DNA of 64,000 nucleotides. Source: Rhizaria sp. SCN 62-66 (taxonomy: Eukaryota). Each line of letters starts with the position of its first letter. Position 1 is the stretch's first letter. The notes below the pieces were generated by a model. That model was not told the origin of the DNA. It saw nothing but the letters and a program-made list of their open reading frames with translations, and made no database searches. Below, in pieces: positions 18,520 through 56,700 of the stretch. A program made the position numbers and the translations under genes. Location: contig MEDY01000130.1 of assembly GCA_001724265.1 (NCBI GenBank), positions 1 through 64,000 of the forward strand, in the 5' to 3' direction.

Positions 18520-18556
<37 letters not shown>

Positions 18557-21500: not shown

Positions 21501-23863
21501 CCGAGTCTGCGGCCTCCAAGTCTTCCACTGTGACCGCGGAAGCCGCTGGCGTGGTAATCGAGGTCGATGAGACTGCGGCACAGGCAGCGCAGCGGTACGC
21601 CGCGATGGTGTACGACTTCCTCCACGAGACCCCCGCCGCGGTGCGGTTCTACACTGGCGACGACGCACTGGCCAGCGCGTTCCTCCCGCGCTCGGCGTTG
21701 ACGCCCGCCGTGCTGGCGCAGGTCGACGCTGCCGCGGCCACACACGAAGAGGGCTAGCGCGTGGTGCTGGGCGAGCTCGCGCGGCTGCTGCGCGAGCGGC
21801 CGCCGTTCTCCCCCGCGGTGGGCCGCGCACTGCACGCCGTGCGCGTGGTCGGCCACGAGGACCTGTGTCCCGTCACGCGCTGGCCAGAGCTGGGTGGCGC
21901 GCTCGCGGCATCGCTTGATAAGGCCGTCGCGGCGGGCAAGTTCGCTGAGGGCGCCACCAAGGCCGCAGCGGAGCGTGCGCGCATGGAGGAGTCGTCGCTG
22001 CAGCTGGCGCGTTTCCACGCTGCCGACTACTGGCGCCTCATGGTGCTTACTATGGACGGGGTTGCCGACGAGCTGCAGTTTCTCCCGCTCACGCCCGAGG
22101 CCGCGCGCGCCGTGTCGACGTACCTCACGCACTGGCGCGAGCCGGTATTCCACGCCCGCCGCGTGCGCGAGATGGACATGGCCGCCGCGGCAAAGGTTAG
22201 CGGTCGCCCCGCGCCGGGTGCTGCGCAAGACGCACAGCCCGACAGCAAGCTGCGGCTTAGCGCGGCAGTGCGTGCAGACCGCGCCGCTACGGCGGCTGAG
22301 GCGGAGCGCGCGAAGCAGACCGCTAAGGGCCCCGCCCCGCGGCTGCTTGAAGGGCGCGGCGTGACCGCGGCGGGTGAGCAGGCTGACGATGAGGGCGAGG
22401 GCGACGAAGACGACGAGTTTGCGCTCGACCTCGGCGGCGCGTACGGGCCCGACGCTGAGGCAGCTGCGGCTGCGGCAGCGCGCGCGTGCCCGCGGTCAGT
22501 CGACGCCGACGGACGCGTGCGTGTGGGCGGGTTTGCCGTCGCGCACGGCCGCGAGCGCGCTGTGCTGGATGCGATCCGTGAGGACGAAGAGGGCGACGCT
22601 GTCAAGGGCGTTTCGCTTGTGCTGCCGGTGTACCAGGCCAAGGCGTGGGTGCCGCCGTTCGAGTGCGTGCACTGCGCGCTGGCCGCGTTGGGCAACGCCG
22701 TCGCCGCGGCGCCCGGCAATATTACCATCATGACCGCCGCCACGAGCACCGAGTCGATGGAGCGGTACTGGACCGCTCTCAGCGAGCTTGATGCGCACCA
22801 CGCACAGGCTGGCACGTGCACGCGTCCCCGCGGCGCGCGCGTGCGCCTCGTGGGGCCCGACGGAGATCTCTTCCCGCGCGTGCGCTGGAGCTCAGACGCG
22901 CGCGTGCCGCTGTACCCGCTGTTCAAGCCCGCGCTGGCTCTTCCGGAGCCGGGCGCGCGCGACGACGAGGACGAGTTGTGGAGTGACGAGGAGCCGGCGA
23001 AGCTGGGCCCCGGCGCGGGCGTCACCTCGCTGCCACCGCTGCTCCGGCCGTACCCACTTGGCCCTAGCGCCGCGGTGCCGCCGCCGCTCGTGGGCCCCAC
23101 GCCCGCGAACCCGCTGGCGAGTGTGGCTCCGCTCGACGCCGCGTTCCTCCAGGCTGCGATCCGCGCCGCGGACTCGCACACGGCCGCGCAGCCGCCGCTC
23201 ACGCCCACAACCGCCGCCGATGCCGCATCGTCGAGTGCTGCGGTGGGGTCGCAGTCGCTGCTGTTGCAGCGGTTCGGCAAGTTCATGCGGCCGCCCGTGG
23301 TGGCGCAGGCGGACGGCACCGTGCCAGAGCACATGCGCGTCGTTGCGGCGCAGCAGGCGCTGGAGCGCGCAGAGGAGTCGGCTGTCAAGGCCGTACTGCT
23401 GCGGAAGCAGCGCGAGCTGCAGCTGGCTGAGCGCGTGCGCGCAGCGATGACGGCGGGTACGGAGCAGTCCGCGATCGATGAGGCAGTTTCGAAAGCGCTC
23501 GATCGACTTGAGCTGGCGATGGGCGATGCTGATGGCGAAGTGCTGCGTCTCAAGGGCGAGGTTAAATCCGCGCGCGCTACAGGCTCGGTGCCGCTGCTCG
23601 TCGGCAAGCCTCCCACAGCGAAGCCAGCGATGTCACCGCTGGCTAAGATGCGTGAGCAGACAAAGGTCGACATCGCTGCTCGCAGGGAGCTGCTGCGCGC
23701 CGACACCGCCGCCGCCGCTGCCGGGAGTACCGGCGCAGCTGAGCCCGGCAAGGGCCTGTTCGCCGCTATCACCGGTCATAACAAACTCTTGCGCAAGAGC
23801 AATGCGAGCAAGAACAAGGATGGCGATGACAAGTCGCAGTCTAAGGGCAAGCGCCGTTTGTAA
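15362..23863 (+). CDS. Giant Ala-rich hypothetical protein (~2833 aa) with one in-frame TAG at 21755-21757; possible mitochondrial presequence
   Basis: ORFs 15347-21757 and 21761-23863 are in the same frame, separated only by TAG-CGC. There is no AT-rich spacer or intron-like sequence at the junction. N-terminus is Ser/Arg-rich with an ARAFSS motif; final stop TAA. Confidence 0.75.
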
Positions 23864-29422: not shown

Positions 29423-30826
29423 GTCCGCACGCAAGGCCGTTGTGTTGCTTGGAAGTTGTGAGTCTTGCGTTGCGCACGTGAGGCAGAGATATAGGTGGTT
29501 GTTTCGTTATAAATAGAGTATTCATGTTATATTTACAAGGTGGCGGAAGGATATTAATTAACTTATATGTATATAATATGAAATGAATAAAAAACCGCAA
29601 CGAAAAAAATGCGTAATTTAACAGATATGTAATACGGAACAGGCCTAACGAGACCATTTACGGACGTAAAGACAGGAAAAGGAAGAAAAACAACAGTGCA
29701 AGTAACAATGGGTTTGAATGGGGTGAATGACTGGGGAGACTGAATATTGATGATTCTTGATTGCTTATTGTTTGTTATTGTTGTAGTAGATTATTATGAG
29801 TATGTTTGGAGGCAAAATACGATGTGAAGATTGTGAGTGCAGTGGTGGCCGATCAAACTGGGTGGTAGAATAGTAGTCAGCGTAGCGCGCAGACACACGC
29901 GCATACCGGTGATGGATAACGTTTGACAGAGCGAGGCATGCTGCTTTACCGTATCGCATGTGACACAGAGGCAACACGTCATGCCTGTCTGATAGACACC
30001 GCGACACAAGACACAAACACACACTTGGAGGCATCATACGATCACATACACGCATACGCGCGCATACACAGCAGAAACAACACAAGCCTGCGCACATTGA
30101 AGCTGCGCGGCACACTTACATCATTTCATAACGCACCAACCAAGATAAGAACCGCGATAAAGTGATATCACGACTGCGAACCAACTATGAACCGTGACTG
30201 CTACACACAGTCTGCGAGTGGACGTGTCTGTGCGCGTGACAGAGTGTTTGTGCGAGTGGGTTGACTGCGAAAGCATATGCGGCCAGTCCGGGGAATCATG
30301 GGTCCAGACACGACACAACACGAGCATCACAGTGAGGCACGGCAAAACATCAGCACACACAGCAAGCACATCAACACGCAGATCACATCAACATAACACA
30401 GGGCAATGCAGCGCCAGTGCGAAGCGAAGGCAAATAGCGGGAGCAGACACAACTGACTGGCAGACGGACGGTTGAGAGATAAGAGATGATGAAGATTGGG
30501 TGAATACTGAATAGAGAACGCGCATGTGAAAACGACGGTGGGGAAGCGGTGTGTCAACATGAAAAGAGACGAAGGGAAGAAGCAAAAAGTAGAGAGTTGA
30601 GAGAGTTGAGAGAGCAAAAGAGCGAGGAGATTGATGACGGCTGGAGACAGAGAGATAGAGATGCGAGGAAAACGAGAGAGGGATCACGGCAACCGCGGGA
30701 ACGCAACGAGCGCAGCGGACAGCGCGCGAACATGTCCAAAGTGGTGAGCAAGTGGGTGGGAGTAAAAACATGTGGGCATGTGACAATGCATGTGACCCTG
30801 TAGGAGCATATGAGTGCGCGCATGTG

Positions 30827-30828
30827 GT

Positions 30829-30870
<42 letters not shown>
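30827..30870. repeat. Compound microsatellite (GT)13(GA)9
   Basis: Read directly from the sequence, in the long non-coding region downstream of the PKA gene. Confidence 0.92.
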
Positions 30871-32272
30871 AACTCCTTCCAAATCACCAAGCAGAGCCAG
30901 GGCTGGAGATGGACTCAAACAGGACCAGCGCTGGTCACCGAGTCGGAGTGGCAATGATGGCATGGTAGACTGACATACGCACATATATACACATATACAC
31001 ACAGATGCGCGCACACAAAAGCTGTGTCAGAAGCAACGTCAGCAGCAACAAACAAGCATACAAGAGAGCAACACGTTATCCAAAGCAACAATAAAGGAAC
31101 AAATTGACAGATGAAAAAAGACCCCACCCGCACCCCAAGCGGTGGACAAGTGGCTCGCGGAGGCAGGGCGGGACACAGAGTGAAAGCACAAAAAACGACA
31201 ACAGGCGGCAGAGACACACAGGCCAACCAACAGTGGCGCAGCGGCTGCCAGTGCCGTGCAATGCACAGCGCTGCGTTGTAGAGCAAGGCAATCTGCACAG
31301 ACTTTGCATACCATAACAAAGCCTGACACAGAACACATCCAGACACACAGAGCAGCAGCAGCAACAGCAGGAGCAAAAGCAGGCGCGGTAAGCGTCATCA
31401 CTGAGGGCTGAACGTTTCAGAGACACAGGGCACGCGCGTACCAAGTCGAACACACGGGCCCTGGTCTGGCCTCTTCTCAGCTCGCAGTGCTATCTTCGTT
31501 TCGCACTCGCACGCGCACGTAGCACTCGCAGTGGGGGACCGGAGGACGTGAGGGACGGTGAGAAAAACAAAACAGGAACAGTAAAAAGGGTACACGTGAA
31601 AAAACAAACATAAAAAGTAACTAGCGGACGAATGCTTTGCAGAATACGAATGAATGAACATGGGTGAGTGACTGAGGGATTGAGGGGGGAATGAATATTG
31701 TTGGACGAATCGAAAAAAAGTGAGTGAGAAAAATATAAAGTAAAGCAGTTAAAGTCGTGACTCAAAATGAATACTTTTTTTTAAGCACCGACGCGAAAGG
31801 TAAGCAAACAGAAACGAGGAGAGTCGGCAAGCCAAAGAAAAGACGAGCGAGGGACGAGACAAAAACAACAAAGCAAGTTGTAGCAGTGACTGAGTGAGTG
31901 GTGATGCTGTGTAAAACAGAGTGTGTTAGTGTTATGTGTTGAGGTTTGACTGCACAGCATAAACGTGCACTACAGTCAAATGACAAACAAAACAGTCCGA
32001 TACAGCAGACAGCTCGACGCACAGAACACCACCAACAATCACAATACCGACGAACAAGCGAGCGGCAACGAAAGAGTACAACATACGACAACAGATTACG
32101 TGATAACGGAAGTGCATCACACCGTCATCAGTTTGGATTCATTTTCAGTTTGTCGCATCGTTGCAGCCATATGTTCATCGTTCGTTTTCATTGTTGTGAT
32201 ATTGTTTACTTTTGCAGTCGTATATCTCAAAACACACACAGTCCGATCCATGGATTGGCCAACGTCGTGTCT

Positions 32273-33832
32273 TCAAAAGTCGTCAAACAGCGCCTGGTCC
32301 TTGGCCGAGAGCGCCACATCGTGCCCAGTCGAGTCGGGGTATTTGTCAAAGTGCGACGTGTCATCCGGAGCGCGCGCCAGCGGCACGTACGGCGGCTTGA
32401 TGCGGCGTTGGTAGCACGCCACCCAGTCGATGCCGCGGAACCACTTCTGGTTCTTGACGTCCTCGGCGCCGTCGCGGAGGCAGCCGAGCCGCTTGGTGCG
32501 GTCAGCGACGAGGAGCTTCTTGACGAGCTCCTTGGCATAGGGGTCGAAGTGGCGCGGGAACTCGATGCGGCCCGCGAGAATCTTCTGGTAGATCCCGAAG
32601 GCGTTCTCGTCGTAGAACGGCGGGTAGCCGGCGAGCATCTCGTAGATGAGGATGCCCAGTGCCCACCAGTCGACGGCCTTGCCGTGGCCCTTGGACTGGA
32701 TGATCTCGGGCGCGAGGTACTCGGGGGTGCCGCAGAGCGTCCACGTGCGGTCAGGGACGACCTTAGCGAAGCCGAAGTCGGTGATCTTGATGTGACCCTC
32801 TTTGTCGATGAGCAGGTTCTCGGGCTTGAGGTCGCGGTACACAATGTCGTTCTCGTGCAGGTATGCAAACGCGAGGGCGATCTCGGCGGCGTAGAAACGC
32901 GCCGTGTCGTTGACAAAGCGGCCGGCCTTGCGGAGCTGCGAGAAGAGCTCGCCTCCGATGACGAACTCCATGAGCATGTACAGACAGCGCTCGTCGACGA
33001 AGGACGTGTAGAGCGAGACGATGAACGGGTGCGCGATTCGCTCCAGAATCGCCTTTTCGGACTTAATGTGGTCGACTTGCTTGAGGCGGATGATCTCGCT
33101 CTTCTTGAGCGACTTGAGCGCAAAGTAGAGCACGCGCTTGTTGTGTGTGCACGTCACGAGCATGACGCGGCCGAAAGTGCCCGTGCCAAGAGTGTCACCG
33201 ATGACGAAGCTGCGCACAGACACGCCGATCGACGCAAAGTACTCGCGCAGCGCCAGGACTTCTGCCACGGCGGAAGACGTCATGGCCTGCGCCGTGGCGG
33301 AGCCCGCGGAGACGCCTGTGGTCGCTGCGGTGCCCGCGGAGGCAGCGTAGATAGCGTCGTCACGTGGGTCGCGACCTCCAGAGCCGGCGGAGCTGGAGCT
33401 GCTGCCGCCGCTGCTGCTGCTCGAGGACGAGCCCCCGGAGGACGAGCTGGACGTGACTGAGTGGGTGTACGAGGACGGAGAGCCGTGCGCGTAGTGCGAG
33501 GGCGTCGCGGCGCCAGACGCGGGCACGGAGGCGTGCGACGAGGCAGAGGAGATAGGACGAAACGAAGGCGACGCAGCGGGCGTGTAGGACGACGTCGAGT
33601 GCATGGGCTGCGAGGCCATGGGAGCGGCGGGCGCAATGGGCACGTGGAGCGTAGAGCCACCGTAGGCCGAGGTAGAGATGACGCCCGTGGCCGGGGACAT
33701 GCTGCCCACGCCCGGAGAGCCGTTCGGCAGGTGCCTCCCTTCGTCCCGCGGGGTCGTTGAGACCGGCCGCGAGAGGGTCTTGGGGGTGTCGGGAGCGTCC
33801 CGCTTGTCTTTCTTTTTGAAAATGAAAGACAT
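32273..33832 (-). CDS. cAMP-dependent protein kinase catalytic subunit with Ser/Ala-rich N-terminal extension
   Basis: LGTGTFGRV, LKQVDHIKSEK, YRDLKPEN, DFGFAK, RTWTLCGTPEYLAPE, KAVDWWALG, C-terminal FDDF hydrophobic motif; ATG at 33832; ends TGA. Confidence 0.96.
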   Translation of the reverse strand: MSFIFKKKDKRDAPDTPKTLSRPVSTTPRDEGRHLPNGSPGVGSMSPATGVISTSAYGGSTLHVPIAPAAPMASQPMHSTSSYTPAASPSFRPISSASSHASVPASGAATPSHYAHGSPSSYTHSVTSSSSSGGSSSSSSSGGSSSSSAGSGGRDPRDDAIYAASAGTAATTGVSAGSATAQAMTSSAVAEVLALREYFASIGVSVRSFVIGDTLGTGTFGRVMLVTCTHNKRVLYFALKSLKKSEIIRLKQVDHIKSEKAILERIAHPFIVSLYTSFVDERCLYMLMEFVIGGELFSQLRKAGRFVNDTARFYAAEIALAFAYLHENDIVYRDLKPENLLIDKEGHIKITDFGFAKVVPDRTWTLCGTPEYLAPEIIQSKGHGKAVDWWALGILIYEMLAGYPPFYDENAFGIYQKILAGRIEFPRHFDPYAKELVKKLLVADRTKRLGCLRDGAEDVKNQKWFRGIDWVACYQRRIKPPYVPLARAPDDTSHFDKYPDSTGHDVALSAKDQALFDDF

Positions 33833-34669
33833 TCTGTGGCGACAGCGGTTGAAATATAGCACAAAGAACAAGGGTTGGGGTGAAATAAAGGCCAAGTGAG
33901 CACCAAGTCAGGGTGCCAGAGATACCGAGTCTGACATAAAGCGAGACGTTTCTCGCGAATATGAACTGCAAGCCCCGCCACAGACTCGTGGAATAGTCTT
34001 CCCCCAATGCTTAAAATATTATATTAATTTACTGCCGTTACAGGAGCACGGGAACCTAGGCTGGAGGGCGTCAGACGGGTTTTGACTGGGCCTCCACTGC
34101 CTCCCCGTCTAAGGGGCCGCCAGCCCTTAGACGCGTCCACCGAGCCGTTTCTCACCCCACACCTCTCTGGCAGGAGGGCACTCGGCGCTTTGCAAACCGG
34201 CCTCCAGCGCTCAACACCACCGTCAACTGGCTCTACAAAGGCATATTATAACAAATTGAGCCATGCATTCATCCTATACTCTTATTATTACCACCCATCT
34301 CCACTGCCTGGCGTGCGTTGTCGAGCTGTTCGAAGCGCCCGACGACCCTTCGACTGCTCGTGTCCGTTTGACCTGCCCCCTCTGAATTTGCGTCCTGTGC
34401 TCACGTTATGCTTTCTTGTTTGCTACTTCGCACCACCCTTAGACACCCGCGCTCTACTAGCGCGTGTATCCGGACTTTGACTTCGCAGTACTGACGTACC
34501 GGAGGTCAACTCACCCGGCTTTCGTTTCTCCCACAAACACCCCCCGGTCAACCAGTCTCGCACGAGAGAGACTTACCTCTCCGTCCGTGCCCGGCTCCAC
34601 CCTCTTGCCCTCGCACCCGGCAACCCCCTCGTGCCCTGTTTTACAGGCTTCTCCGCTCACACACCGAAG

Positions 34670-37600
34670 ATGAGCGTCCCCGTGTCTCGGTCGTCGGCTA
34701 TCGTGGGCGTGAACGACCCCAACCTGCCGGTCAAGGACCTCGACGATGTCTACGCCGCGCGCGCTCAGGCCGAGCTCATGGGCGCTGACGAGCAGGAGCA
34801 ACTCTCCCGCGAAGAGCCCTACGTGCCGCTCGCGATGGCTGAGATTCGCGTGCGCTCGATGATGGGCGACCTCAAGGATATGAAGGCCGACCACTTGGAG
34901 CGCATGAACCACCTGCAGAAGACCTACGACGACTTGCTGCGCAACCAGCACAAGGTCGCCAACGACATGCTCGACAAGGTCCGTGACAAGGCCGCCGAGC
35001 GCATCAAGGCGTACAAGGACAAGGCGATGGCGATCAACAAGCAGATGATCGCGGACAAGAAGGCCCAAGAAAAGGCCCAGCGCGTGGCTGAAAAGGAAGT
35101 CAAGGCGATGAAGAAGAACCTCGACGCCATCATCCGCGCCAAGAAGGACCTCGACGAAGAGCTCGCCGCGCGCGAGCGCAAGCTCAACAAGAAGCACGAG
35201 GAGCTGCGCCAGGCCAACGAGAAGCTTCGCGATCTTGAGGACAACGGCAAGGGCTCCGCTGAGCAGGCCGCCGCTCTGGCTGCCGAGGTCGGCACTCTGG
35301 GCACCGAGGTTGAGGCACTGCGCGGCACTGTTGCGAAGAAGGACGAGGAGATCGCGCGGCTTAACCTGTCGCTCGACAACACGTCCTCGGGCCTCTACCG
35401 CCTCAAGGCTGACGGCGTCACTGCGTCTGCTGGCGAGGCGGAGAAGCTGCACCGCGACCTCATCGACACGCAGCAGCGTGCGCAGGTGCTTGAGACGGAG
35501 CGCGGTCAGCTCATGACCGAGATCGCCCGTCTCGGCGCTCTTGTCGCCGCGGGCGCCACGTCTGCTGAGGTCAGCGCCGGTGATTCCGCGAAGTTGCACG
35601 CTCTCGAGTCGCAGCTTGCCGATCTGGACCGCGCGCGCCGCGTCGAAGCCGAGAAGCACCACGCCACGCTCGTTGCGCTCGATGACAAGCACGGCAAGGA
35701 CAAGGCGGGCGCGTTGCTGGCGCAGAAGACGCTCTACGACAAGATGCTGAAGCAGATGACCAAGGCCGGCGAGGACCAGGAGAAGGCCAAGGCGCGCGAG
35801 GCTAAGGATTCCGCCGTCAACGTCAAGGTCGGCGCCGCTAAGCGCGAGGCTGACGAAGCGGCGCGCAAGAAGGCTCTCGCGGACCAGCAGAAGGAGGAGG
35901 CCGACGATCGGTTCAACCACTGCGACGGCCGTTTGAACGAGGTCGACGCTGAACTGGCCGCCAAGCTCAAGCGCAAGCAAGAGGTCGACCCCGAGCTTAC
36001 CGTGCGCGCCCGTGAGCTGACCGAGAAGCAGCGCGCTGCCGACGCCGCCGAGGGCGACCGCGACCGTGTGAGTAAGTACTCTGAGGATGAAGGCCGCGCG
36101 CAGATGGCTAAGTTCGGCCTCAACTGGGACGATGTCAACGGTCCGCTCGTCACGCAGCTGCTCGAAGTGTCGAAGCACTACAACCTGCAGAAGGCCGGCC
36201 AGGAGGACATGAAGACGATCAAGGCCGAGCACGAGGAGCTTAAGGCGCTCGCGGCCTCCCCGGACCAGGAGATCGCCGGTCCCGCCAAGGTCAAGACCAA
36301 GGACCTCTCGGCCAAATTTAAGGCTGTCAAGGACGAAGCCACGGCACACAAGGCGCAGTGGACCGAGCTCGTGCAGAACCTCGGCCTCAAGGAGTCCGGC
36401 GTGCCGTTCGACAAAGACGCCGATTTCGACGAGCTCGCGCTGGCCGCTGAGATGTGGCACGAGGTCATGCGCAAACAGCCCGCCAAGCGTGCTGACCCGT
36501 CCGCACTGCCGCCGCATATCGTTGAGGCGCTGGCCGCGTTCGGCGTTGCGCCCGCGGCCTTCACGCCCGAAGTTGTAGCTGATATGGAGACCATTGTCGC
36601 CGACTTTGGCCGCCAGCGCGCGCTGCAGGAGCAGATGAAGACACTCAAGAACGACTTCGACGCCTGCAAGGCCAACACCAAGGACAACGAGGCCGCGCGC
36701 GATGCCGCCAAGGACGAGCTCGCCGTGGCGCGCGCCGAGGGTGCCCCGCAGGACGTTGTTGATGCGCTCCAGGCCAAGGTCGAGGGCCACATGAAGGAGG
36801 TTGAGGCCAACTCTGCCAAAGGCAAGGAGGTCTTCGGCCAGTTCACCGACGTCAAGAACGAGGCCACCAAGGCCAAGGCCGCGTGGACTGCGACTATGAA
36901 GAAGAACAACCTCGACTCCAACGGTCGTGCGTTCGACAAGCTTGCTGACTTCGACCTGCTGTCGCAGATCGTCTCCGAGTACAAGGAACACATCAACAAG
37001 GCCCCCGAGGAGGTTTCCGAGCGCGTGGTCACCGACGACGCCTCGCCCGAGGGCCCCTCCGCCGAGCTCAAGGCTCTGGTCGAGCAGCTCGCCGCCGAGG
37101 AGGCCGCACTGGCACAGGCGATTGACTCGCTGAAGAACGAGCGCGTGAAGCTTGTGCAAGATAAGGAGGAGTACGAGGACCAGCAGCAGATGGCCGCCCT
37201 TGCCGCCGTCTCCGCCAACAAGGAAGTCATGCGTCTCCGCGCCAAGCTCACCGAGGCCCAGAAGGCTGCCGCCGCTGAGGCCGCTGCCAACGGCGGCGCC
37301 GCGCCCGAGGATGACGAGGACGAGGAAGACCTCACCGGCGGTGTCCGCATCACCATCCCCGGCGACATGGCCGAGGCACAGAAGGAGCTCATCGACGCCC
37401 GTTTCGCGCTTGCACAGGCCGAGAAGCAGTCCGAGGCGTTCCGCCAGCAGATCCACGACGAGCGTAAGAAGTACAACCAGTCGATCGACGACCTGGAGAC
37501 GCGTATCCGCGAGCTTGAGGCCGAGATCGAGCGTTGGAAGCGCCTCGAACAGCAGTGGAAGATCACTGCCGGTACGTTCTACGCCAAGTCTGGCATCATG

Positions 37601-40075
37601 GGCCAGCAGTCGCAGTCCGTCGCGGGCTTCGAACACGCGGCCGGCGGCGGCGGCGGCAGTCCCGAAGACGCGGCTAAGTACGAGAAGCTCCGCGGCGACC
37701 ACGCCAAGTCTCTGCGCGATCTCGAGCAGTCGAAGAAGCGCTACAACGACCTGCTGATCCTGCAACGCGGTGTCGAGGACAAGCTCAACGCTGGCGACAC
37801 TGAGGGCGCGCTTGAGCTGCTCCGCTCCGGCACCGACGAGTCCGGCGCGCTCCGCGGCATCGCGGGCGCCGCGGGCAAGAGCGACAGAGTCGGCGAGGGC
37901 AGCGGCAGCGGCGCGTCCGCGGCCGTTGTGGCCGAGCTGGAGGCGCGCATCGAGACCGAGCGCTCTGCCAAGGAGGCCGCCGAGGCCGAGATCAAGTCTC
38001 TCCAGGCGCAGCTCTCGGTGCTGCAGTCGTCGTCGGGCAGCTCGTCCGCGCAGCTGCAGCAGCAGCTCGCGACGGCGTCGGGCGACCTGCAAAAGACCGC
38101 TGCCGAACTGGAGACGGCTAAGACGCGCCGCGCTGAGCTCGAGACCGAGCTCGCCGCGCTTAAGTCTAGAGCGGGCGAGGAGAAGTCTTCGCTCGACGCG
38201 CGTGTCGAGGCGCTTGAGGCGTCGCTGTCGTCCACCCAGGGCACGCTCGACGCCAAGAACGCAGAGCTGTTGACGCAGATCGCCGCGCTTGCCGCACTTG
38301 AGAGCCAAGTGCAAGGCCTGAACCGCCAGCTCGCCGGCAAGGACGAGGAGATGCTCAGCAAGCTCGCCGCCGCCGAGGCCGCCGCCACTGCCGCACTCAC
38401 GGCCGCGCAGGAGGAGCACGCGCGCGCGCTCGAGGAGCAGGACGCCGCCGCCAAGGCCGAGCTCGCTGCCGTTGCCGCCGAGCGTGACCGCGCTGCCGGT
38501 GCGCTGGCCGCCGAGGTTGCGCTTAAGGTTGCCGCCCTCGAGGACGCCGCTGCGAAGCAGGCGCGCATCGAGGAGCTCGACAAGGAGGTCGCTGACTGGT
38601 CGAAGCGTCTCGCCGATCTCTCCGTCAAGTACGTCGAAGAGCAGGAGCGCCGCAAGTACTTCCAGCAGGAGTACGAGGCTGCTAAGGGTAAGATCCGTGT
38701 GTACGCCCGTGTCCGCCCGTGGATTCGTCTCGAGAAGGAGTCCGACAATCCGCAGGCGCTGGTCAAGTGCGTGCGCCCCGGTCCTAACGTGTGGAGCATG
38801 ATGCTCAACCACCAGAAGATGTCCGTGCAGGATAACAAGCTCATGGACGACTGGAACCCCAAGACGTTCGACCACGTGTTCCTCGGTGGTTACAATGACG
38901 ACTTCCCGGGCACCGACAACGGCTCTCAGGCCGAGGTGTTCAAGGAGTGCGAGGGTTTCGCCGAAATGGCCTTCGATGGCCTCAACACGTGTATCTTCGC
39001 CTACGGCCAGTCCGGTTCCGGCAAGACGTGGACGATGCGTGGCTCGACCACGGACCCCGACCAGTGGGGTCTGAAGCCGCGCATGGTGCGCCACCTGTAC
39101 CAGATGCGTGACGCCACCAAGGCGCGCTACGAAGTCCGTATCTTCTGCACCATGTTCGAGATCTACAACGACGAAATTCAGGACATTTTCGAGCGCCACG
39201 AGCAGGTTCAGCGCTGGGAGAAGGAGAACAAGAAGTGCTACAAGTGCTATGCGCCCGACCACAGCTTTATCGAGTGCACCAACTGCGCCAAGTGCCGTCA
39301 GCCTGGCCACTCGTTCTCGCTCTGCAAGGCCAAGCAAGCCGGTAAGTTCTACCTCGACCGTTTCGATCCCCCGTCGAAGAAGCTCGAAGTCAAGGTTCTC
39401 GGTAACCAGCGTGTCGCCATCAACGGTCTCCAGGAGCGCACGTGCCAGACGTTCGACGAGATGCAGCGCCTCTGCGATGAGGCTGAAATGCTGCGTCGTG
39501 TGCGCGCCACGGGTCTGAACGATGAGTCGTCGCGTTCGCACCTCATTTTCGCGATCCACATCGAGAAGAAGGAGAAGAACCCCAAGGACAAGAAGAACGC
39601 ACTTCCGTCGTACGGCAAGTTGTCGCTCTGTGACCTTGCCGGTTCCGAGCGTGCTGAGCGTACGGCCATGGGCAAGGACATCTCGCCGCAGGACAAGGCG
39701 CTCATGGAGCTCGAAGGCAAGCGTATCAACCAGTCGCTGTCCGTGCTCACGTCTATTTTCGCTGCGCTCGGTGCCAAGCTCAAGCCAGGAGAGAAGCGTC
39801 AGCTGCCGCGTTACCGTGAGAACCTGCTTACAAACGCCATGCAGGACTCGATTGGTGGTAACGCGCGTACGCTCATGTTCGTCAACGTGTCGCCGTCGCT
39901 GATGAATTTCGAAGAGACGAAGCAGACGCTGTCGTACGGTGATCTCGTGCAGAACATCACTGGTGCTGTCGCGACCAGCGACGTCGACGTTGAGCAGTAT
40001 GTTGACCGTATCGCCACGCTCGAGGAGCAGCTCAAAAAGTACGAGGCTGCGGCGCACCACGCGCCCCCCGAGTGA
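34670..40075 (+). CDS. Kinesin-14-type protein: long N-terminal coiled coil, C-terminal motor with inserted tandem CCHC zinc knuckles
   Basis: Neck KGKIRVYARVRP, P-loop IFAYGQSGSGKT, EIYNDEIQD, switch I NDESSRSH, switch II DLAGSE, INQSLS, GGNARTLMFVNVSP; ends TGA. Confidence 0.95.
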   Translation: MSVPVSRSSAIVGVNDPNLPVKDLDDVYAARAQAELMGADEQEQLSREEPYVPLAMAEIRVRSMMGDLKDMKADHLERMNHLQKTYDDLLRNQHKVANDMLDKVRDKAAERIKAYKDKAMAINKQMIADKKAQEKAQRVAEKEVKAMKKNLDAIIRAKKDLDEELAARERKLNKKHEELRQANEKLRDLEDNGKGSAEQAAALAAEVGTLGTEVEALRGTVAKKDEEIARLNLSLDNTSSGLYRLKADGVTASAGEAEKLHRDLIDTQQRAQVLETERGQLMTEIARLGALVAAGATSAEVSAGDSAKLHALESQLADLDRARRVEAEKHHATLVALDDKHGKDKAGALLAQKTLYDKMLKQMTKAGEDQEKAKAREAKDSAVNVKVGAAKREADEAARKKALADQQKEEADDRFNHCDGRLNEVDAELAAKLKRKQEVDPELTVRARELTEKQRAADAAEGDRDRVSKYSEDEGRAQMAKFGLNWDDVNGPLVTQLLEVSKHYNLQKAGQEDMKTIKAEHEELKALAASPDQEIAGPAKVKTKDLSAKFKAVKDEATAHKAQWTELVQNLGLKESGVPFDKDADFDELALAAEMWHEVMRKQPAKRADPSALPPHIVEALAAFGVAPAAFTPEVVADMETIVADFGRQRALQEQMKTLKNDFDACKANTKDNEAARDAAKDELAVARAEGAPQDVVDALQAKVEGHMKEVEANSAKGKEVFGQFTDVKNEATKAKAAWTATMKKNNLDSNGRAFDKLADFDLLSQIVSEYKEHINKAPEEVSERVVTDDASPEGPSAELKALVEQLAAEEAALAQAIDSLKNERVKLVQDKEEYEDQQQMAALAAVSANKEVMRLRAKLTEAQKAAAAEAAANGGAAPEDDEDEEDLTGGVRITIPGDMAEAQKELIDARFALAQAEKQSEAFRQQIHDERKKYNQSIDDLETRIRELEAEIERWKRLEQQWKITAGTFYAKSGIMGQQSQSVAGFEHAAGGGGGSPEDAAKYEKLRGDHAKSLRDLEQSKKRYNDLLILQRGVEDKLNAGDTEGALELLRSGTDESGALRGIAGAAGKSDRVGEGSGSGASAAVVAELEARIETERSAKEAAEAEIKSLQAQLSVLQSSSGSSSAQLQQQLATASGDLQKTAAELETAKTRRAELETELAALKSRAGEEKSSLDARVEALEASLSSTQGTLDAKNAELLTQIAALAALESQVQGLNRQLAGKDEEMLSKLAAAEAAATAALTAAQEEHARALEEQDAAAKAELAAVAAERDRAAGALAAEVALKVAALEDAAAKQARIEELDKEVADWSKRLADLSVKYVEEQERRKYFQQEYEAAKGKIRVYARVRPWIRLEKESDNPQALVKCVRPGPNVWSMMLNHQKMSVQDNKLMDDWNPKTFDHVFLGGYNDDFPGTDNGSQAEVFKECEGFAEMAFDGLNTCIFAYGQSGSGKTWTMRGSTTDPDQWGLKPRMVRHLYQMRDATKARYEVRIFCTMFEIYNDEIQDIFERHEQVQRWEKENKKCYKCYAPDHSFIECTNCAKCRQPGHSFSLCKAKQAGKFYLDRFDPPSKKLEVKVLGNQRVAINGLQERTCQTFDEMQRLCDEAEMLRRVRATGLNDESSRSHLIFAIHIEKKEKNPKDKKNALPSYGKLSLCDLAGSERAERTAMGKDISPQDKALMELEGKRINQSLSVLTSIFAALGAKLKPGEKRQLPRYRENLLTNAMQDSIGGNARTLMFVNVSPSLMNFEETKQTLSYGDLVQNITGAVATSDVDVEQYVDRIATLEEQLKKYEAAAHHAPPE

Positions 40076-40582
40076 GCGCGCTAACGAAGCTTTAACATAC
40101 GCTGTGGGAGGAGGATTATTAAGAAAGAAAGATTTAGAAGCAATGGAGGTGATCTGTGTTTGTTCTTTAGACGTGCATGGTGCTGGCTGTTAACTGTGGG
40201 CGCGATGCTGCGTGTGGCGTGCTTGGGCGCGGTGACACAACAGTAGCGACGACAGCGGCCTGATAATGACAGCGTTGTGCGATAACGATCGTTGGAGTAG
40301 TGATATAGTTGGCCAGGATACGGCCTTAGTTCTTAGGTGTGCAATTTATAGAAACTACATTTTATTAGAAAACAATAAATTTAATACAATACATTACTAT
40401 TATTTTCGTAACTCTCGTTTATGCCTCATTTTTAAATGGAAAAAAGGAATGTCGTCACACTTTGTGCAGTTCGATGGTGGCGCAATCGCGAGGGGTCCCG
40501 GATGATCGAGGAATTCGTTCAACTGGAGCTCTGCGAACAGTCCGTCAACAGTGTGCGCACCATCACGAGGTGCTTTCCTACG

Positions 40583-41611
40583 ATGGAGACTGCAATTACA
40601 CTAAATCATTTTGTTGAGCTTCACTCGCAAGCTCTCCGCTTCCTCACAAAACAAGACGCCACAATCGAGTCTTGGTTGGCATGCCGCGACCAGTGCTCCC
40701 GTCAAGTCTCCTCCCTCGCCAACCTATGGCCGCGCCTCGAACTCTTTGCGACAGCATCTAACACCTGCTCGCCGCCCTCCGCCGGCACGAGCGCGGATGC
40801 CGGCGCCGGCTTCGCGTCGTCGCAGGCCTTCGACGCGCTTGGCGTGCTCTGTGCGTTGGATGCCGGCGCCGCCCCGGGCCTCGGCGTCGGCTCCGAGCTC
40901 CTCTCTCTCTGCGCGGATCAGCTCGCCGCCGTGCTGCGCAACCTTGCACAGCTCTCAGGCACGCTCACCGCGCGCGCCGCCGAAGCGCACGAAACTGTCA
41001 CAGCGCTGGCTGCCGCGGTGGCAGAGGCTGCGCTGCCGCCGGAGCTGCTGGTGCGTGTGCCGCCGCTGCCCGGTGACCAGGCCGCGCGCGCGCCGCCGCT
41101 GCCGATGACCATCGCCGATGCGCTCGCGCTGCTGCGCACGCAGGCACAGCTCGTTGCGGACGAGAGCGCGCGCTTGGCAGGTCTGCTGGCTGCCGCGACA
41201 ACTGCTTCAACAACGTGGACCGCGGCTGGCAACGGCTCACAGCACTGTGTTTCAACCACTGACGTCGTCGCTCAAGCAGCCGCGGCCGCGAGCGAGACTG
41301 TGAGCGAGGGCCACTGGGAGCTTGGTACGCGGCTAGGCGCGGCGCTCGCTGCTGCGGCGACTGGCAGCGTCGGCCGCGGCGGCGGCAATGGCGGAGCTGG
41401 CGGGTTTGAGTTCGCGCACAGTGACACACAGGGCGCTCAGACGGGCGTGCTACGACTGCAGCCCGCGCGCACGGGTACGCGGACCGAGCCGGCGCCGCTG
41501 GGCGTGCTGCCGGAGTTGCCCGCGCACTGGGCCGGGAACGGCGTTGCGGTCGCGCGCTTGGCCGAGGGCCGCAAGCTTGTCACTGCCGCCACCAAGAAGC
41601 CGCGCCAGTGA
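40583..41611 (+). CDS. C1orf109/AIRIM-like (CA109-like) protein, tentative
   Basis: W...C...VSSLANL..RL, then a helical segment and PMTIADALALL, resemble remembered C1orf109 blocks (W...C..LLSSLSNL; PSVADMLEWL). Coding-like composition; ends TGA. Confidence 0.55.
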   Translation: METAITLNHFVELHSQALRFLTKQDATIESWLACRDQCSRQVSSLANLWPRLELFATASNTCSPPSAGTSADAGAGFASSQAFDALGVLCALDAGAAPGLGVGSELLSLCADQLAAVLRNLAQLSGTLTARAAEAHETVTALAAAVAEAALPPELLVRVPPLPGDQAARAPPLPMTIADALALLRTQAQLVADESARLAGLLAAATTASTTWTAAGNGSQHCVSTTDVVAQAAAAASETVSEGHWELGTRLGAALAAAATGSVGRGGGNGGAGGFEFAHSDTQGAQTGVLRLQPARTGTRTEPAPLGVLPELPAHWAGNGVAVARLAEGRKLVTAATKKPRQ

Positions 41612-51050: not shown

Positions 51051-53291
51051 ATGCCCCGCCACGTCGCTGGCGTCGCGCCTCTCACAGCGGCGCTCTCCGC
51101 ATCGCTGCTGTTCCTTGCGCTGCTGCTGGCGGCCCCCGCCCCTTGCACGGCTCAAACCGCGACGCAGAAGGCGATTCTCGACATGATGGAATCCAAGGGC
51201 CCGTCGATCCACGTCCAGGACGACGACGTCTCGCTGTCGTACGCCATCATCGACAAGTACCAATGCAGCTCCATGACCGGCTCGCATTGTATCGCGCTCC
51301 ACGGTGGCGGGTTCTCGGCCGCGCACGCCGCGCCTGCTGAGGTTGACCGCGCCATGGACTCGGTCGTGCGCAAGTACGCCCGTACCGCGCATCTTCGCGT
51401 CTCCACGCTGCGCGACAAGCCGTCCCTGCGCGGTCGCCGTGCAAACAACGCCGCGAACTCTGCTGCAGCGAAGCGTGGCGCGACCGGCACTGCGAGCAAC
51501 CCCTTCGCGTCGTTGTCCGCGGCCGCCGCATCGTCGTCTCAGCGCGCGTTTACGTCTGTGTTGACCGCGCCCTCGCTGGTGGCCGCTTTGACCCAGCTCG
51601 CGGCCACGTCCAAGGCACCCGCCGACGCCTCTGCGGTTGCCACTTCCTCTGCGGGCGCCGGCACCGAGGGCCGCGAGGCCGTGGAGGCGCTATTGAAACG
51701 CATCTACGGGCCAGGGTCAAAGATTGAAGTCCGTGAGGAGCCCCGTGGCACGTGGCACATCTCGAGCAACACACAACCAGGCCAATACGCCGCGTCCGCC
51801 GCTGCCGCTGCGGGTGCGACGACGGGGGCGAACGGGATGGCCAAGGCGGCCGCGGTGCCGTTGGCGGAGATCGACTACGATGCGCCGGCGTCGGATGCTA
51901 TTTTCGCCGCGCTGGCCAAGGAGGCGAAGCGCAACCGCGCGCTCAAGGCTGCCGGCATCGCTCCGCCGCCTGCTGCTCATGCCAACGCTGCTGCTGTGCC
52001 CGCTGCTGCCACTGCGGGTGCGAATGTGGGCGGAGTGACGCAGCTGGCGGAGATCCTGGTGGCTGCGGCGGCCGCGATCGAGTCAGGCAATGTCAAGGGC
52101 GCGATAATCTCGCAGTCGCAGTCGCAGTCTCCGTCGCAGCAGACTCAGGCGGAGGCTGGCGGCACAGTTCTCACAACCCAAGGCGCGGACGGGGCGACGG
52201 TGACTGTGCTGAGCATGGAGGATGCGGTGGCGCAACTCAAGGCCTTTAAGCTCGCCGCTGCCGCGCTCACTGCCGCGCCGTCACAGGCTGAGCAGGCAAA
52301 GGTACAGTTCCAGGCTCCAGCAGCAACTGTGACAGCGGGTGACGCCAGCGGTTTGGCGCAAGGTAAGGCTGCTGGCGCGAATGGAGGCGATAAGGCGCAT
52401 GCTGCGCTACTGTCGCGGCTTGCGAACGAAGGCTACACTCGCGTGTCTAGCGGCGCCAACACCAACGCGGACGTGGATGCAGATGCGGATGCAAGTGCGG
52501 ACACTGACGTAAAGGCGAACGCGAACGCCGTGGACGCTGATACGAAGGTGAGCGCGAACGCTAACGCGAAGGCTGATCCGCATGCGAACACGAATGCTCA
52601 CGCGAATCCTAACGCTAACGCAAAGGCGAGTGCTAAAGCTAAAGTCAAGGCACATGATAAAGCAAGCGCGAAGGCGACCACGCAGGCAAACATCGATGGT
52701 GCCGCTAGTAAGAAAGTTGGCACCCCCGTAGCCCCCGCTACGAATGCTGCTCCTGCTGCTCCTGCAAATGCTGCGAATGGTGCGCCTGCGGTGCCTGCTG
52801 CGACAACCAGCGTTGCGCCTAACGTGCACGTTGTGACCGCCGCCACTGGCGCCGCCACAGAGTCCGGCGCTGGCGGCGATGAAAAGGCTGATGCTGAGGC
52901 AATTTTGGAGGCCGCGTTGGCTGCGAGGCGTGCGCGCAGGCCTGTCACTGCAAATGCTGGTGCGAACAAGGATGCCGCCATTCAGAATGCCGCTGCCAAC
53001 AAGGACACGAGCAAGGACACGGTTGCTTCGACCAAGGACATCAACAAGGATGCGACCAACAAGGACGCACCCGACACGGGCGCTGCCAGCCACGACAACA
53101 CGGAGGCGAGCAAGGGCGCTGTTGCGGGCGACGCCACGAGCAAGGGCACCACCCGCAGGAGCAGAAACAACCGGAACAACAAAAACAAGGGCAATAGCGA
53201 CAAAGCGAACGCTCCTGTCGCTGCAGGCGCGGCTGACGCGGTTGCGAGTACGACGCCTGCTGGGGTGTACAACGATGCTAAGAAGCCGTGA
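51051..53291 (+). CDS. Predicted secreted low-complexity (Ala/Asn/Lys/Asp-rich) hypothetical protein
   Basis: Long ORF from ATG 51051 with signal-peptide-like LSASLLFLALLLAAPAPCTA; flanked by AT-rich spacers; ends TGA. Confidence 0.75.
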   Translation: MPRHVAGVAPLTAALSASLLFLALLLAAPAPCTAQTATQKAILDMMESKGPSIHVQDDDVSLSYAIIDKYQCSSMTGSHCIALHGGGFSAAHAAPAEVDRAMDSVVRKYARTAHLRVSTLRDKPSLRGRRANNAANSAAAKRGATGTASNPFASLSAAAASSSQRAFTSVLTAPSLVAALTQLAATSKAPADASAVATSSAGAGTEGREAVEALLKRIYGPGSKIEVREEPRGTWHISSNTQPGQYAASAAAAAGATTGANGMAKAAAVPLAEIDYDAPASDAIFAALAKEAKRNRALKAAGIAPPPAAHANAAAVPAAATAGANVGGVTQLAEILVAAAAAIESGNVKGAIISQSQSQSPSQQTQAEAGGTVLTTQGADGATVTVLSMEDAVAQLKAFKLAAAALTAAPSQAEQAKVQFQAPAATVTAGDASGLAQGKAAGANGGDKAHAALLSRLANEGYTRVSSGANTNADVDADADASADTDVKANANAVDADTKVSANANAKADPHANTNAHANPNANAKASAKAKVKAHDKASAKATTQANIDGAASKKVGTPVAPATNAAPAAPANAANGAPAVPAATTSVAPNVHVVTAATGAATESGAGGDEKADAEAILEAALAARRARRPVTANAGANKDAAIQNAAANKDTSKDTVASTKDINKDATNKDAPDTGAASHDNTEASKGAVAGDATSKGTTRRSRNNRNNKNKGNSDKANAPVAAGAADAVASTTPAGVYNDAKKP

Positions 53292-53761: not shown

Positions 53762-56700
53762 TCACCGTGCAGCCTTAGCAAGCGCGCGCTTGATGAGCTC
53801 AGCCGCTTTAGTCGCGGAATCCTTCTCCGTCTTGCGCGCCTTGTCACCGTTCTTCTCGCTCTTACTACGCGCAACATCAATGTCAGCACCGGCGTCACCG
53901 CCAGCGGCCGCCGACGCATCGCGGCCCATGCTCTTGATAGTCTCGGCGACAGCGTCAATGTCGCTGCGGCTCATCACGCCGCCGTACTGCTTCAGCAGCC
54001 CCGCGACGAGCTCGCGCAGCACATGCACCTGCCGCTGCTGCGCCGCGAGCCGGCGCAAGTCCTTGCCGAAGGCGGCCGACAGCTCGCCCGCGCGCGCGCG
54101 CTCCGCCTCGAGCTGGCTCTCGAGCACAGCCACGCGCGTGCGCAGCGCCTCGACGACGGCTTCGCGCCCGCGCAGCTCCTCGGACTGCGCGCGCAGCGAC
54201 TCCGTGAGGAACGCGTACGGCTGCTGCTCGCTCTGGCCCGCCACGGCAGGCTGCCCCGCCTGCTGCTGCTGCAGGGTGAGCGCGGGGAACGCCGAGGTGG
54301 CCGCAAAGTCCATGCGCGCGCCCGGGCCGGGTGGGAACAGCGCGGCGTCAGCGCCCGCGACAGCCGCCATCGCGGAGCCGCCGAACCCGGCGCGCGCGGC
54401 GTCGGCAGACAGCAGCGCGAGCAGCGAGTCGCGCCGGCCCGCGCGCGCGGCCGCGGCGTGGATAGCGGCCAGCTCGGCGGCCTGTTTCTCGCCCGCCGCG
54501 CGGCTCTGCGCGAGCTCCTGCGTCAGGCGCGCGATCTCGGCCTGCTTCTCAGTCAAGCGGTGCGCCAGCAACAGCGACTGGCGCAGACGCTGCCGCGCCG
54601 CGCCAGTCGCAGCGGTCATGTCAGACCCGCCCGAAGCAAGCGCGCCGAGCACTGCGTCGACGCCGTGGATCTTGTGCGCGGACGCCGACGTGGCACCCGC
54701 GGCGCCGGGCCCGCTGCCGCCGCCAGACCAGAGAACGCGCTCGCCGGGATGCTTGCCCGCGCGGCCGGCCCCGCTGGCGTTGTCAAACGCGGCCGCAGTG
54801 TCTGCGCCCGCGCGCACGATGGCGAGGTCGAGGTCGTGCTCGAGCACTGCGTACGCCTGTAGCCGTCCGCGCAGCGCCTGCTCTGTGGCGCGCGACTCGG
54901 CCTCGAGCTTGGCCGTGGCCTCGCGCACGGCGTGGTACTCGGCCAAGATGACGTCGGCGCGTTCCTTGGCGGCGTCGTGCAACACGCGCATCGCCTGGTA
55001 GTCGTTGTGCGCCTTCTCGTACAGCCCCGCCACGCGCTCAGCTTCGGCGGCCTTGACGCGCAGCTGCGTCAGCGCGTCGGCCGCCTGTGCCTCAGCAGTG
55101 GCCTTGTCGTGCCGCAGCCGGTCCTCGGTCTCCTCGCGCGCGCGCCGCAGCTCGGACAGCTCGCTCTGCGCGCGCGCCAGCTGCGCCCAACCTTCGTCCT
55201 TGCTCTGCTTCAGCGCGGCCAGCTCGCGGTGGTGCACCTCGGTCTGCTGCGCGCGGACTTCGCTCAGAGCGGCCTCGGAGCGCTCGCGCAGCCGCGCCAG
55301 CTCGCCGTCGAGCCGCGACTCGTACTGCAGCCGCGCGTCAACCTGCGCGCGCAACAGCTGTTCGCCGAGCTCTTCCTTGTTGCGCTTCAGCGCGGCGGCC
55401 TTGTCGCGGGACCGTGCGAGCTCGCTCTCGGCCGTGCGCAGCTGCTCGCGGAGCAGGATTGCCTCGCGCAGCAAGTGCTCTTTGTCGGCCCGCAGCAGCG
55501 CCGCTTCCTGCTGCGCGTGGCCCATCTCCTCGCGCGCGCGCCGCGCCTCCTCGGTGGCAGCCTGCGTGGCCGCGGAGGATTCCTTCGCGGTCGCCGCGGC
55601 AGCGTCCGATGAGCCCTTGAGCCGGGCGACCTCCGCCTCGAGCTCGGCCGCGCGCGCAGAGACGAGGTCAAACCGGCGGCCCTTGTGCCGCAGCGACACG
55701 GCCTCGGTCTCGAGCGCGGCGTGCTCGGCCTCGTGCGTCGCGCGCTCGCTCGCCAGCTGCTGCAACAACCGCGCCTGCGTCTGCCGCGCGTCGGCCAGGT
55801 CACGCGCCTGCACCTCGGTCTGCGCTGTCAGCGACTGCGCGCGCTCCGACAGCTCGCGCACGGCCCCCGCGGCGCCCGCGGCGTGGGACCGGTGGCGCGC
55901 CACGGCTTGCCACAGCTGTGTCTGCACGCGCTCCAGCAGCGAAAGCGACTCCGGGGCGCGCGCCGCGAGCCGCGCGAACTGGACATCGTCGACCTCGAGC
56001 GACTCTACGGCCAGCGACGCCAGCAAGCGGTCCTTAACCGTGTTGGCGCCCGCGCGGAGCCCCGCGGCGTCGCGTTCCGCCGCAGCCGCGCGCGCAGTTG
56101 CAGCAGCGGCCGCAGTCGCGCCTCGCTCGGCCGCGGCGGCCGCGGCGGCGCGCGCGCGTTCGAGCTTGTCGATCTCGGTAAGCAGCGCGGCAACGTCGTT
56201 GCGGCCCGAGGTCTGGAGGCGGTGCGCGAGCGCATGCAGCGTCGCGTAGTCGGCCTGCAGCTGATGGCAGTGCAGCAGCAGCCGCGGCAGATCCAGTGAG
56301 GCCGGGAGCAGTTGCGAGAGAAGCTGGCCTTGATACGCAGCGCTCGCGGCGCCCGCCTTGTCGCCCTGCGCGGACATGGCGGGCACGGGCGTCGTCGCCA
56401 ACGCGGCCGCGACGGCCGCCGGTGGCGGCAGCGGTAGCATCGGGTGGCTCAGGCGGCGCAGTAGCGCGTCGACCTGGCCTACGTCGACATGCTCCACGGC
56501 CGTGACGCTCGTGTTGACCGAGCCCGCGCCAGCGCCGGTGCTGGGCGTGACACCGAAGCCGAGCCCGAGACTGGGGTCAGACGCCGGGATGACCGGGCCG
56601 CCGTGGGGGCCGGCACAGGCAGCGGAGTGCGTTGTCTGCGCGTGGGTCGCGAGTACGCCGGTGATGCTGTGGGACTGCGCGGGCGCCGGAAAGAGCTGCC

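Follow-up and report, generated by a model that had tools for sequence, protein, structure and literature searches.

A conserved pair of CCHC zinc-knuckle motifs embedded in the motor domain of a kinesin-14-type protein

A kinesin gene on contig MEDY01000130.1 of the assembly GCA_001724265.1 (Rhizaria sp. SCN 62-66) encodes a C-terminal motor into whose head two tandem zinc-knuckle motifs, each with the exact spacing CX2CX4HX4C, are built. Positions 1 to 64,000 of the contig were analysed and are called the window here; all coordinates are positions in this 64-kb window, and fragment residues follow the numbering of the 491-residue motor piece 38600-40072. The two knuckles lie within an insertion of 56 residues that opens loop L8. 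Judged from its sequence, the host is an otherwise intact C-terminal motor of the kinesin-14, KCBP-like type, and among the kinesins retrieved the arrangement was found in none outside its own small clade. We consider it highly probable that the anatomy, the conservation and the single origin of the knuckle insertion, taken jointly, are as described below. Direct binding of single-stranded RNA by the kinesin head is the leading reading of what the insertion does, and we favour it tentatively.

The knuckle insertion and its host motor

The gene is a single open reading frame (ORF). The frame is open over 34481-40075, the first ATG is found at 34670, and 1801 residues follow without interruption; protein P0001 of the searched protein collection is identical over the 1801 residues. 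About 1300 residues, mostly of coiled-coil stalk, are followed by a neck helix and the C-terminal motor. A first-pass annotation, made from the letters of the DNA alone, had reported two exact CX2CX4HX4C motifs joined by a TN linker at 39236-39325. These coordinates proved exact, and both motifs are in the frame of the single ORF. The gene and the elements of the insertion are the following.

34670-40075, plus strand: whole gene, an intron-free ORF of 1801 residues and a stop codon (ORF listing and translation)
39185-39229, plus strand: helix extending out of strand beta5, with an invariant Trp (AlphaFold2 helix of fragment residues 196-210; predicted local distance difference test, pLDDT, of the block going from 94 to 87)
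39197-39364, plus strand: the 56-residue insertion opening loop L8 (fragment residues 200-255; break in the KIF13B alignment)
39236-39277, plus strand: knuckle 1, CX2CX4HX4C, CYKCYAPDHSFIEC (residues 1523-1536, in frame of the ORF)
39278-39283, plus strand: linker TN, two residues between the knuckles
39284-39325, plus strand: knuckle 2, CX2CX4HX4C, CAKCRQPGHSFSLC (residues 1539-1552, in frame of the ORF)
39332-39364, plus strand: insertion tail KQxGxxYxDRF, whose K, Q, G, Y, D, R and F do not vary among the five motors

The insertion is flanked by FEIYNDEIQDIF upstream and KKLEVKVLGNQRVAINGL downstream, and the flanking strands are as the first-pass annotation had described them. In the phmmer alignment to KIF13B the match stops at fragment residue 199 and resumes at residue 256, which leaves 56 residues without counterpart. 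When 22 related motors were aligned, about 42-46 of the insertion residues were missing even in a knuckle-less sister clade (see below), and the excess was larger still against KCBP-like motors. The distance from the P-loop to switch II was 208-231 residues in the knuckle clade vs 155-169 in ten motors of the sister clade (P0006-P0013, P0016 and P0017).

In a published loop nomenclature (PMC3473065), L7 denotes the hairpin joining beta4 to beta5, on which the invariant Tyr of EIYN is located. Since the invariant Tyr of EIYND marks the L7 hairpin, the insertion comes after beta5, opens L8 and precedes the beta5a/beta5b hairpin; in this nomenclature, the earlier placement in the beta5/L8 region holds. 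In the AlphaFold2 model the helix that leaves beta5 acts as the stalk of the insertion. The insertion carries a net charge of +5 to +6 and contains 8-9 aromatics in 59-63 residues.

The knuckle pair is not a chance occurrence. With 15 Cys and 31 His among 1801 residues, the count of CX2CX4HX4C expected from composition is 1.8e-5, and the motif was obtained in 0 of 20000 shuffles of the protein. A six-frame scan of the whole window returned three such motifs, two of which are the kinesin knuckles. The third, CEACAQACHCKCWC at 52922-52963 (plus strand), belongs to a 746-residue ORF (51051-53291) without a Pfam family; it resembles a Cys-rich stretch rather than a knuckle and is unrelated to the kinesin pair.

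The motor that surrounds the insertion consists of the elements listed here.

38603-38683, plus strand: neck helix (AlphaFold2 helix of fragment residues 2-28, running into beta1)
38690-39964, plus strand: kinesin motor domain (Pfam PF00225; fragment residues 31-455)
39005-39028, plus strand: P-loop GQSGSGKT (from sequence; nearly invariant columns in the 48-row alignment A1)
39155-39190, plus strand: beta4, L7 hairpin with the invariant Tyr (EIYND) and beta5 (EIQD) (DSSP strands 177-189 and 192-195)
39383-39427, plus strand: hairpin of beta5a, short L8 tip and beta5b (LEVKV..QRVAI) (DSSP strands 263-267 and 271-275; ordinary length)
39527-39541, plus strand: switch I SSRSH (from sequence; invariant in A1)
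39632-39649, plus strand: switch II DLAGSE (from sequence; D, L, A, G and E invariant in A1, S nearly so)
39989-40057, plus strand: C-terminal helix beyond the motor core (AlphaFold2 helix 464-486)

The catalytic motifs had been called intact, and GQSGSGKT, SSRSH and DLAGSE are indeed invariant or nearly so in the 48 rows. Pfam recognised Kinesin (2.7e-74) and Microtub_bd (4.6e-25) in the whole protein. In the 491-residue fragment the corresponding matches were PF00225 (3.7e-75; 253.4 bits vs a cut-off of 29.3 bits) and PF16796 (Microtub_bd; 6.3e-26, 91.6 bits), and the Kinesin match came in two stretches around the insertion. The motor occupies residues 1340-1765 of 1801. An AlphaFold2 model of the motor, built with the 48-row alignment, reached a mean pLDDT of 87.7 and a predicted template-modelling score (pTM) of 0.86. 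Foldseek matched this model to kinesin motors with E down to 4e-31, and VIA-align superposed it on Eg5 (3hqd) with Z 41.9 and a root-mean-square deviation of 2.2 over 336 residues; 354 chains were aligned at a Z of at least 8.

Chains of Ncd (1n6m, 2ncd) and Kar3Vik1 (4etp) align starting at model residue 1, and thus a neck helix stands ahead of the core in the style of kinesin-14. The motor is C-terminal with the neck helix directly N-terminal to it, which is the kinesin-14 architecture, and its best named matches bear the annotations KCBP, KIN14I or calmodulin-binding C-terminal kinesin. When only sequences were compared, the PDB entry ranked first was the kinesin-3 KIF13B (2.5e-46), above KCBP (2.8e-42). 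The assignment to kinesin-14 is provisional and is based on the architecture and the named relatives, the motor tree described below having been built without other kinesin families. The protein is a putative minus-end motor.

Compared with other kinesin-14-like motors, this clade also has about five extra Lys-rich residues in the beta6-beta7 loop (39560-39610, NPKDKKNALPS) and, past switch II, a lengthened L11 (39650-39720). In the stalk, at 36110-36980 (about residues 481-770), two segments of about 130 residues appear by eye to have a common pattern, in which a K-A-x-W ... F-D-K-x-A-D-F-D block is preceded by a similar helical piece. When the protein was compared with itself by blastp, no internal repeat was found at E<=1e-3, the look-alike stalk segments included.

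Conservation, reality and origin of the insertion

Four further proteins with the same insertion were found in a collection of 5.8 billion proteins; their identity to the window protein over the motor region was 91% (P0002), 80% (P0003), 68% (P0004) and 50% (P0005). A search of 1.84 billion representatives, from which the best 150 of 36,020 kinesin hits at E<=0.001 were considered, added among these 150 only one fragment of the P0003 type (P0126). Besides the knuckle carriers, P0233, P0236 and P0249 matched in one stretch, all without the motif, and in all remaining proteins of the best 150 the match was split at the insertion.

All eight Cys/His ligands were invariant in the five knuckle-bearing motors, down to 50-53% motor identity, so that the conservation on which the first-pass proposal had been staked was found in four of four further orthologues. 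The Trp in the helix and the Lys inside each CxKC were invariant in all five as well, and so were G-H, F and S of knuckle 2. Five of five motors have an aromatic directly after the first Cys in knuckle 1 and, in both knuckles, a further one two residues past the His. Besides the neighbours of the ligands, 21 of 66 aligned insertion positions were invariant, several aromatics among them. P0005 has about 20 extra residues directly past the insertion tail, and because these are tolerated there, the exit of the tail is probably surface-exposed. Among 243 other retrieved kinesins none had even the loosened motif C-x2-C-x3-6-H-x3-6-C anywhere, and a full-text literature search, judged by titles and the starts of abstracts and with subscription journals outside its coverage, found no description of knuckles in a kinesin motor domain. 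The architecture was thus neither widespread nor already described within these searches, though a distant kinesin family may carry knuckles too.

The GC content at third codon positions (GC3) was 0.84 in the insertion, 0.87 in the knuckles and 0.78-0.86 in the remainder of the gene, in good agreement with the earlier remark that codon usage matches the gene. A metagenome scan gave three loci, one of them identical to the window, and orthologue DNA was available as L001 and L002. The ratios of nonsynonymous to synonymous substitution rates (dN/dS, Nei-Gojobori), which are rough values since synonymous sites are close to saturation, were 0.29 for the insertion and 0.083 for the whole motor between the window and L001, 0.063 and 0.143 between the window and L002, and 0.115 and 0.112 between L001 and L002. 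Judged from these ratios, the insertion is under purifying selection.

Metagenome runs of 9 studies, from wastewater, bioreactors and activated sludge, contained the stretch of the gene, and the contigs of four runs were mapped on 34300-40500. In X9, a polyA metatranscriptome run, one contig of 261 nt spans 39112-39372 with 0 differences and no gap, and none of the four runs had a joint at the knuckle segment. Splicing out of the segment, raised at first pass as a point on which the proposal could fail, is not seen in these contigs, and dN/dS is well below 1. Three joints were observed, all in the repetitive stalk, and their short sides measured only 21-25 letters. Of 30 bins of the gene, 9 lacked a contig in the polyA run, and such holes are uninformative.

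The segment would not be a real protein feature if it were a retained intron or the product of a chimeric assembly, or if the gene were decaying; we find this very hard to believe. Nine of 33 GT..AG pairs would excise the segment in frame. The RNA evidence consists of contigs only, assembled ones in which DNA carry-over is possible, and the same run also covers 40230-40492 past the stop; this counts against the segment as a protein feature. The protein-level constraint (dN/dS 0.06-0.29) argues against splicing out via the GT..AG pairs. Further evidence against an artefact is that the insertion with all its ligands recurs in four independent orthologues and in the separate assemblies L001 and L002, that its GC3 equals that of the gene, and that the unspliced contig from the RNA library is joined by contigs identical to the window from several DNA or unknown-type runs. 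On this comparative evidence the module is real, is translated and is maintained by selection.

For the phylogeny of the motor, 38 rows were picked from 249 proteins and P0018 was left out, having no P-loop match; a quick maximum-likelihood tree of the 37 motor domains was computed with the knuckle segment excised and a midpoint root. The five knuckle rows formed one clade, with a support of 100 in the Shimodaira-Hasegawa-like approximate likelihood ratio test (SH-aLRT), and its sister consisted of 11 knuckle-less rows, which include a protein of the cercozoan Mataza sp. The knuckle clade and its sister together split from the KCBP-like remainder, again with SH-aLRT 100. A single gain of the insertion, which would have taken place in an uncultured protist clade, is the simplest reading of this tree. 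A word-based search with the 66-residue insertion against longer proteins, with four candidates scored, returned the kinesin itself and two orthologues and thus gave no lead to a donor of the module. In the ESM Atlas, the insertion alone gave no usable match, and residues 160-300 gave generic kinesin clusters only (0.82-0.83, below the lead level of 0.9), none with a knuckle family.

Nucleocapsid likeness and candidate functions

The ligand spacing of PF00098, CX2CX4HX4C, occurs twice and exactly in the insertion. When a profile made from the five insertions was searched against all PDB sequences, the best match was the HIV-2 nucleocapsid 2ec7 (E 8e-4, 22.9 bits), with both knuckles and the short tail aligned. 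HIV-1 NCp7 entries came next (E 0.013-0.046), and EIAV p11 was matched too. The KQxG of the insertion tail aligns with the nucleocapsid tail past the second knuckle, and 11 of the 14 PDB matches at E < 0.05 are nucleocapsids. The likeness to the two-knuckle nucleocapsid arrangement is real, though marginal.

With retroviral nucleocapsids (2ec7, 2l4l, 1a1t) the kinesin module has in common the tandem CX2CX4HX4C pair, the basic character, the aromatic of knuckle 1 and a similar short tail. It differs from them in its linker of 2 residues, where nucleocapsids have a longer basic one, in a knuckle 2 without the aromatic and in being embedded in an ATPase core; the kinesin also has no Gag context, and no Gag or capsid Pfam family was recognised in the protein. 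On these sequence features the module is not a member of the retroviral or retrotransposon nucleocapsids, though it may work alike. The term 'retroviral-type' used at first pass is backed by no more than the spacing and the marginal profile match; in Pfam, zf-CCHC stayed below threshold.

Three features suggest that the head may bind single-stranded RNA: the knuckle spacing, the nucleocapsid match and the placement of the aromatics, residues of a kind on which nucleocapsid knuckles stack bases. According to the mechanism that we propose, a helix leaves beta5, bears the two CCHC knuckles and the KQxGxxYxDRF tail, and the chain then rejoins the beta5a/beta5b hairpin of L8. Each knuckle would bind one Zn(II), and jointly the knuckles would form a small basic, aromatic-rich surface like that of nucleocapsid proteins, and on this part of the motor head single-stranded nucleic acid would be bound, RNA being the likeliest kind. 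As the L8 lobe binds microtubules and the module is located at its base, the binding of RNA would affect the binding of microtubules and vice versa; the motor would then either have an RNA tethered to its head or be modulated by RNA. A further-reaching version is more doubtful: a nucleocapsid-like knuckle pair, possibly from a retroelement Gag, would have been set into the core of a minus-end kinesin and long kept there, binding RNA at the head and gating microtubules or ATP turnover. If true, this grafted pair would make the kinesin a motor that is regulated by RNA or carries it, with no adaptor required.

Several observations weigh against RNA binding and against the nucleocapsid likeness behind it. 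The scores for Pfam zf-CCHC, 10.8 bits when the motor fragment was scanned and 14.5 bits for a 100-residue piece, stayed below the gathering score of 20.8, and the family gave no match at E<=1 in any of five related proteins (P0002-P0005, P0126); of the nesting of zf-CCHC in Kinesin that the first-pass annotation expected from Pfam, only the split Kinesin match was obtained. The nucleocapsid match is marginal and cysteine-biased, with Fur, snake C-type lectins and WDR5 interleaved at E 0.016-0.09, and its alignment requires a gap of 5 residues in the linker. After its first Cys, knuckle 2 has Ala or Gly and no aromatic. The knuckles are also poorly modelled: in the AlphaFold2 model, which is confident for the motor fold, the pLDDT of the knuckle blocks was 79, 55 and 55, and the insertion modelled alone with a 5-row alignment reached a mean pLDDT of 58.1 and a pTM of 0.44. 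With a linker of just 2 residues, the zinc ligands may be interleaved (CX2C...CX2C plus HX4C...HX4C) rather than arranged as two sequential knuckles. Finally, the site adjoins the microtubule-binding loop, which favours a contact to the lattice, and the CCHC knuckles of CLIP-170 bind proteins and not nucleic acid (PMC2172020).

A lattice contact would mean that the basic, zinc-stabilised module extends the L8 lobe to the acidic tubulin tails or to a neighbouring subunit, whereby a minus-end motor that is not processive would bind more tightly, dwell longer or crosslink more. Such an auxiliary microtubule contact appears rather unlikely to us. The insertion opens the loop that is called microtubule-binding loop 8 in the Cin8 paper (PMC5582858), where the 99-residue L8 insert of Cin8 is described to alter microtubule-binding stoichiometry and salt tolerance; the net positive charge of the insertion would suit this role, and the length of the connection already varies within the sister clade. 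Electrostatic tethers of the Cin8 kind are, however, disordered and poorly conserved, whereas here the 21 invariant positions argue for a specific folded surface. In addition, the insertion is located before beta5a and not at the L8 tip, and in our reading of the topology it is the tip that is taken to face the lattice.

Docking of a protein is less likely still. In this case the knuckles would recruit a regulator at the head, or be masked by one, in the style of CLIP-170, whose two CCHC knuckles bind the CAP-Gly domains of p150Glued and of CLIPs as well as LIS1, and also mediate an autoinhibitory fold-back (PMC2172020). The long stalk and the C-terminal helix of the kinesin could fold onto the head in a comparable way. 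Against docking, nucleocapsids make up the top profile matches (E 8e-4 and 0.013) and most of those at E < 0.05, CLIP-170 was not represented among the best 60 of 85 PDB profile matches, and no partner is known. We think it improbable that the module is a structural or redox/zinc-sensing element without an external ligand, which would rigidify the loop or make the motor respond to zinc or redox state via beta5 and L7. The coupling between the nucleotide site and the microtubule site runs through L7 and the central sheet, and mutation of the L7 Tyr alters both sites (PMC3473065). The insertion begins four residues past the L7 hairpin, so its rigidity could matter, and six cysteines are a plausible redox target; yet conservation extends past the ligands to the aromatics, the Lys and the KQxG..Y.DRF tail, which is more than a pure scaffold would require.

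Genomic setting and relation to known kinesins

The window contains long, intron-free and GC-rich ORFs (GC3 0.84) separated by AT-rich spacers. A Dis3/Rrp44 homologue at 949-4914 (minus strand) has RNB, CSD1, CSD2 and S1 domains and no PIN at E<=1e-5. Its close relatives are metagenome proteins only (78-54% identity), and its best named full-length matches are from two Paulinella species (47-48%). By precomputed Pfam annotation, PF13638 is also missing in the nearest relatives P0251, P0253 and P0255-P0259 and in both Paulinella proteins, whereas most other matches carry it; the PIN-less Dis3 may thus be a lineage trait in common with cercozoans. Paulinella, like Mataza, is cercozoan, and the presence of Mataza sp. 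in the kinesin sister clade and the Paulinella matches of Dis3 hint at a rhizarian or cercozoan host. In the intergenic region 30001-32000 a strong A-over-T skew (0.38-0.42) was observed at a GC content of 0.49-0.52, and a scan of it for tandem repeats gave only a short (TG)16 array at 30823-30853. Seven long ORFs (391-2131 residues) have no Pfam family at E<=1e-5; very GC-rich parts also yield long spurious antisense ORFs, so that some of these may not be genes.

15362-21757, 21983-23863, 32171-33460, 40436-41611, 51051-53291, 53762-57229 and 58742-63496: the Pfam-less ORFs

Among known motors, the window kinesin resembles KCBP and kinesin-C of the kinesin-14 family in the C-terminal motor after a neck helix and in the Pfam families Kinesin and Microtub_bd, and the KCBP structures 4frz and 3h4s match the motor model with Z 38.0. 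It differs from KCBP in that no MyTH4 or FERM domain was found by Pfam at E<=1 in the 1801 residues, while some named relatives carry PF00784 and PF00373, in the 56-residue knuckle insertion after beta5, and in the tree, where the knuckle clade is on a long branch with its knuckle-less sister, apart from the named KCBP-like rows. The yeast kinesin-5 Cin8 likewise has a big class-specific L8 insertion that alters the contact of the head to the microtubule (PMC5582858). In that paper, however, the Cin8 insert has 99 residues, is predicted to be disordered, is Asn/Gln-rich and is described without zinc ligands, and as seen from a replacement construct it is placed at the L8 tip between the hairpin strands, whereas the window insertion precedes the hairpin. 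Cys/His-rich and conserved, the window insertion is not a disordered low-complexity insert of the L8 tip.

CLIP-170 is another protein of the microtubule cytoskeleton with CCHC knuckles, but it is a plus-end tracker and not a motor, its knuckles are C-terminal, and they bind CAP-Gly and LIS1 (PMC2172020). In the KIF1C-CNBP system a kinesin is tied to mRNA via a CCHC-knuckle protein; there, as reported (PMC12002053), the knuckle protein is a separate adaptor, whereas the window kinesin has its knuckles in cis, inside the head.

What is new here is a kinesin-14-type motor with a novel embedded module. Kinesin heads are tuned by loop insertions, and those known to us are flexible. The present one is a conserved and apparently folded zinc module of a nucleic-acid-binding type, placed four residues past the L7 hairpin at the base of L8. 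If it binds RNA, the motor would recognise RNA by its head and not by a tail adaptor, and its mechanics would possibly be RNA-responsive. If it binds the lattice, it would represent a new way of building an extra microtubule contact. Either way, the protein is a compact natural construct with which to probe how much foreign structure is tolerated at the beta5/L8 junction, and the module is a marker for a protist clade that probably belongs to the Cercozoa, has been poorly sampled and is common in wastewater reactors.

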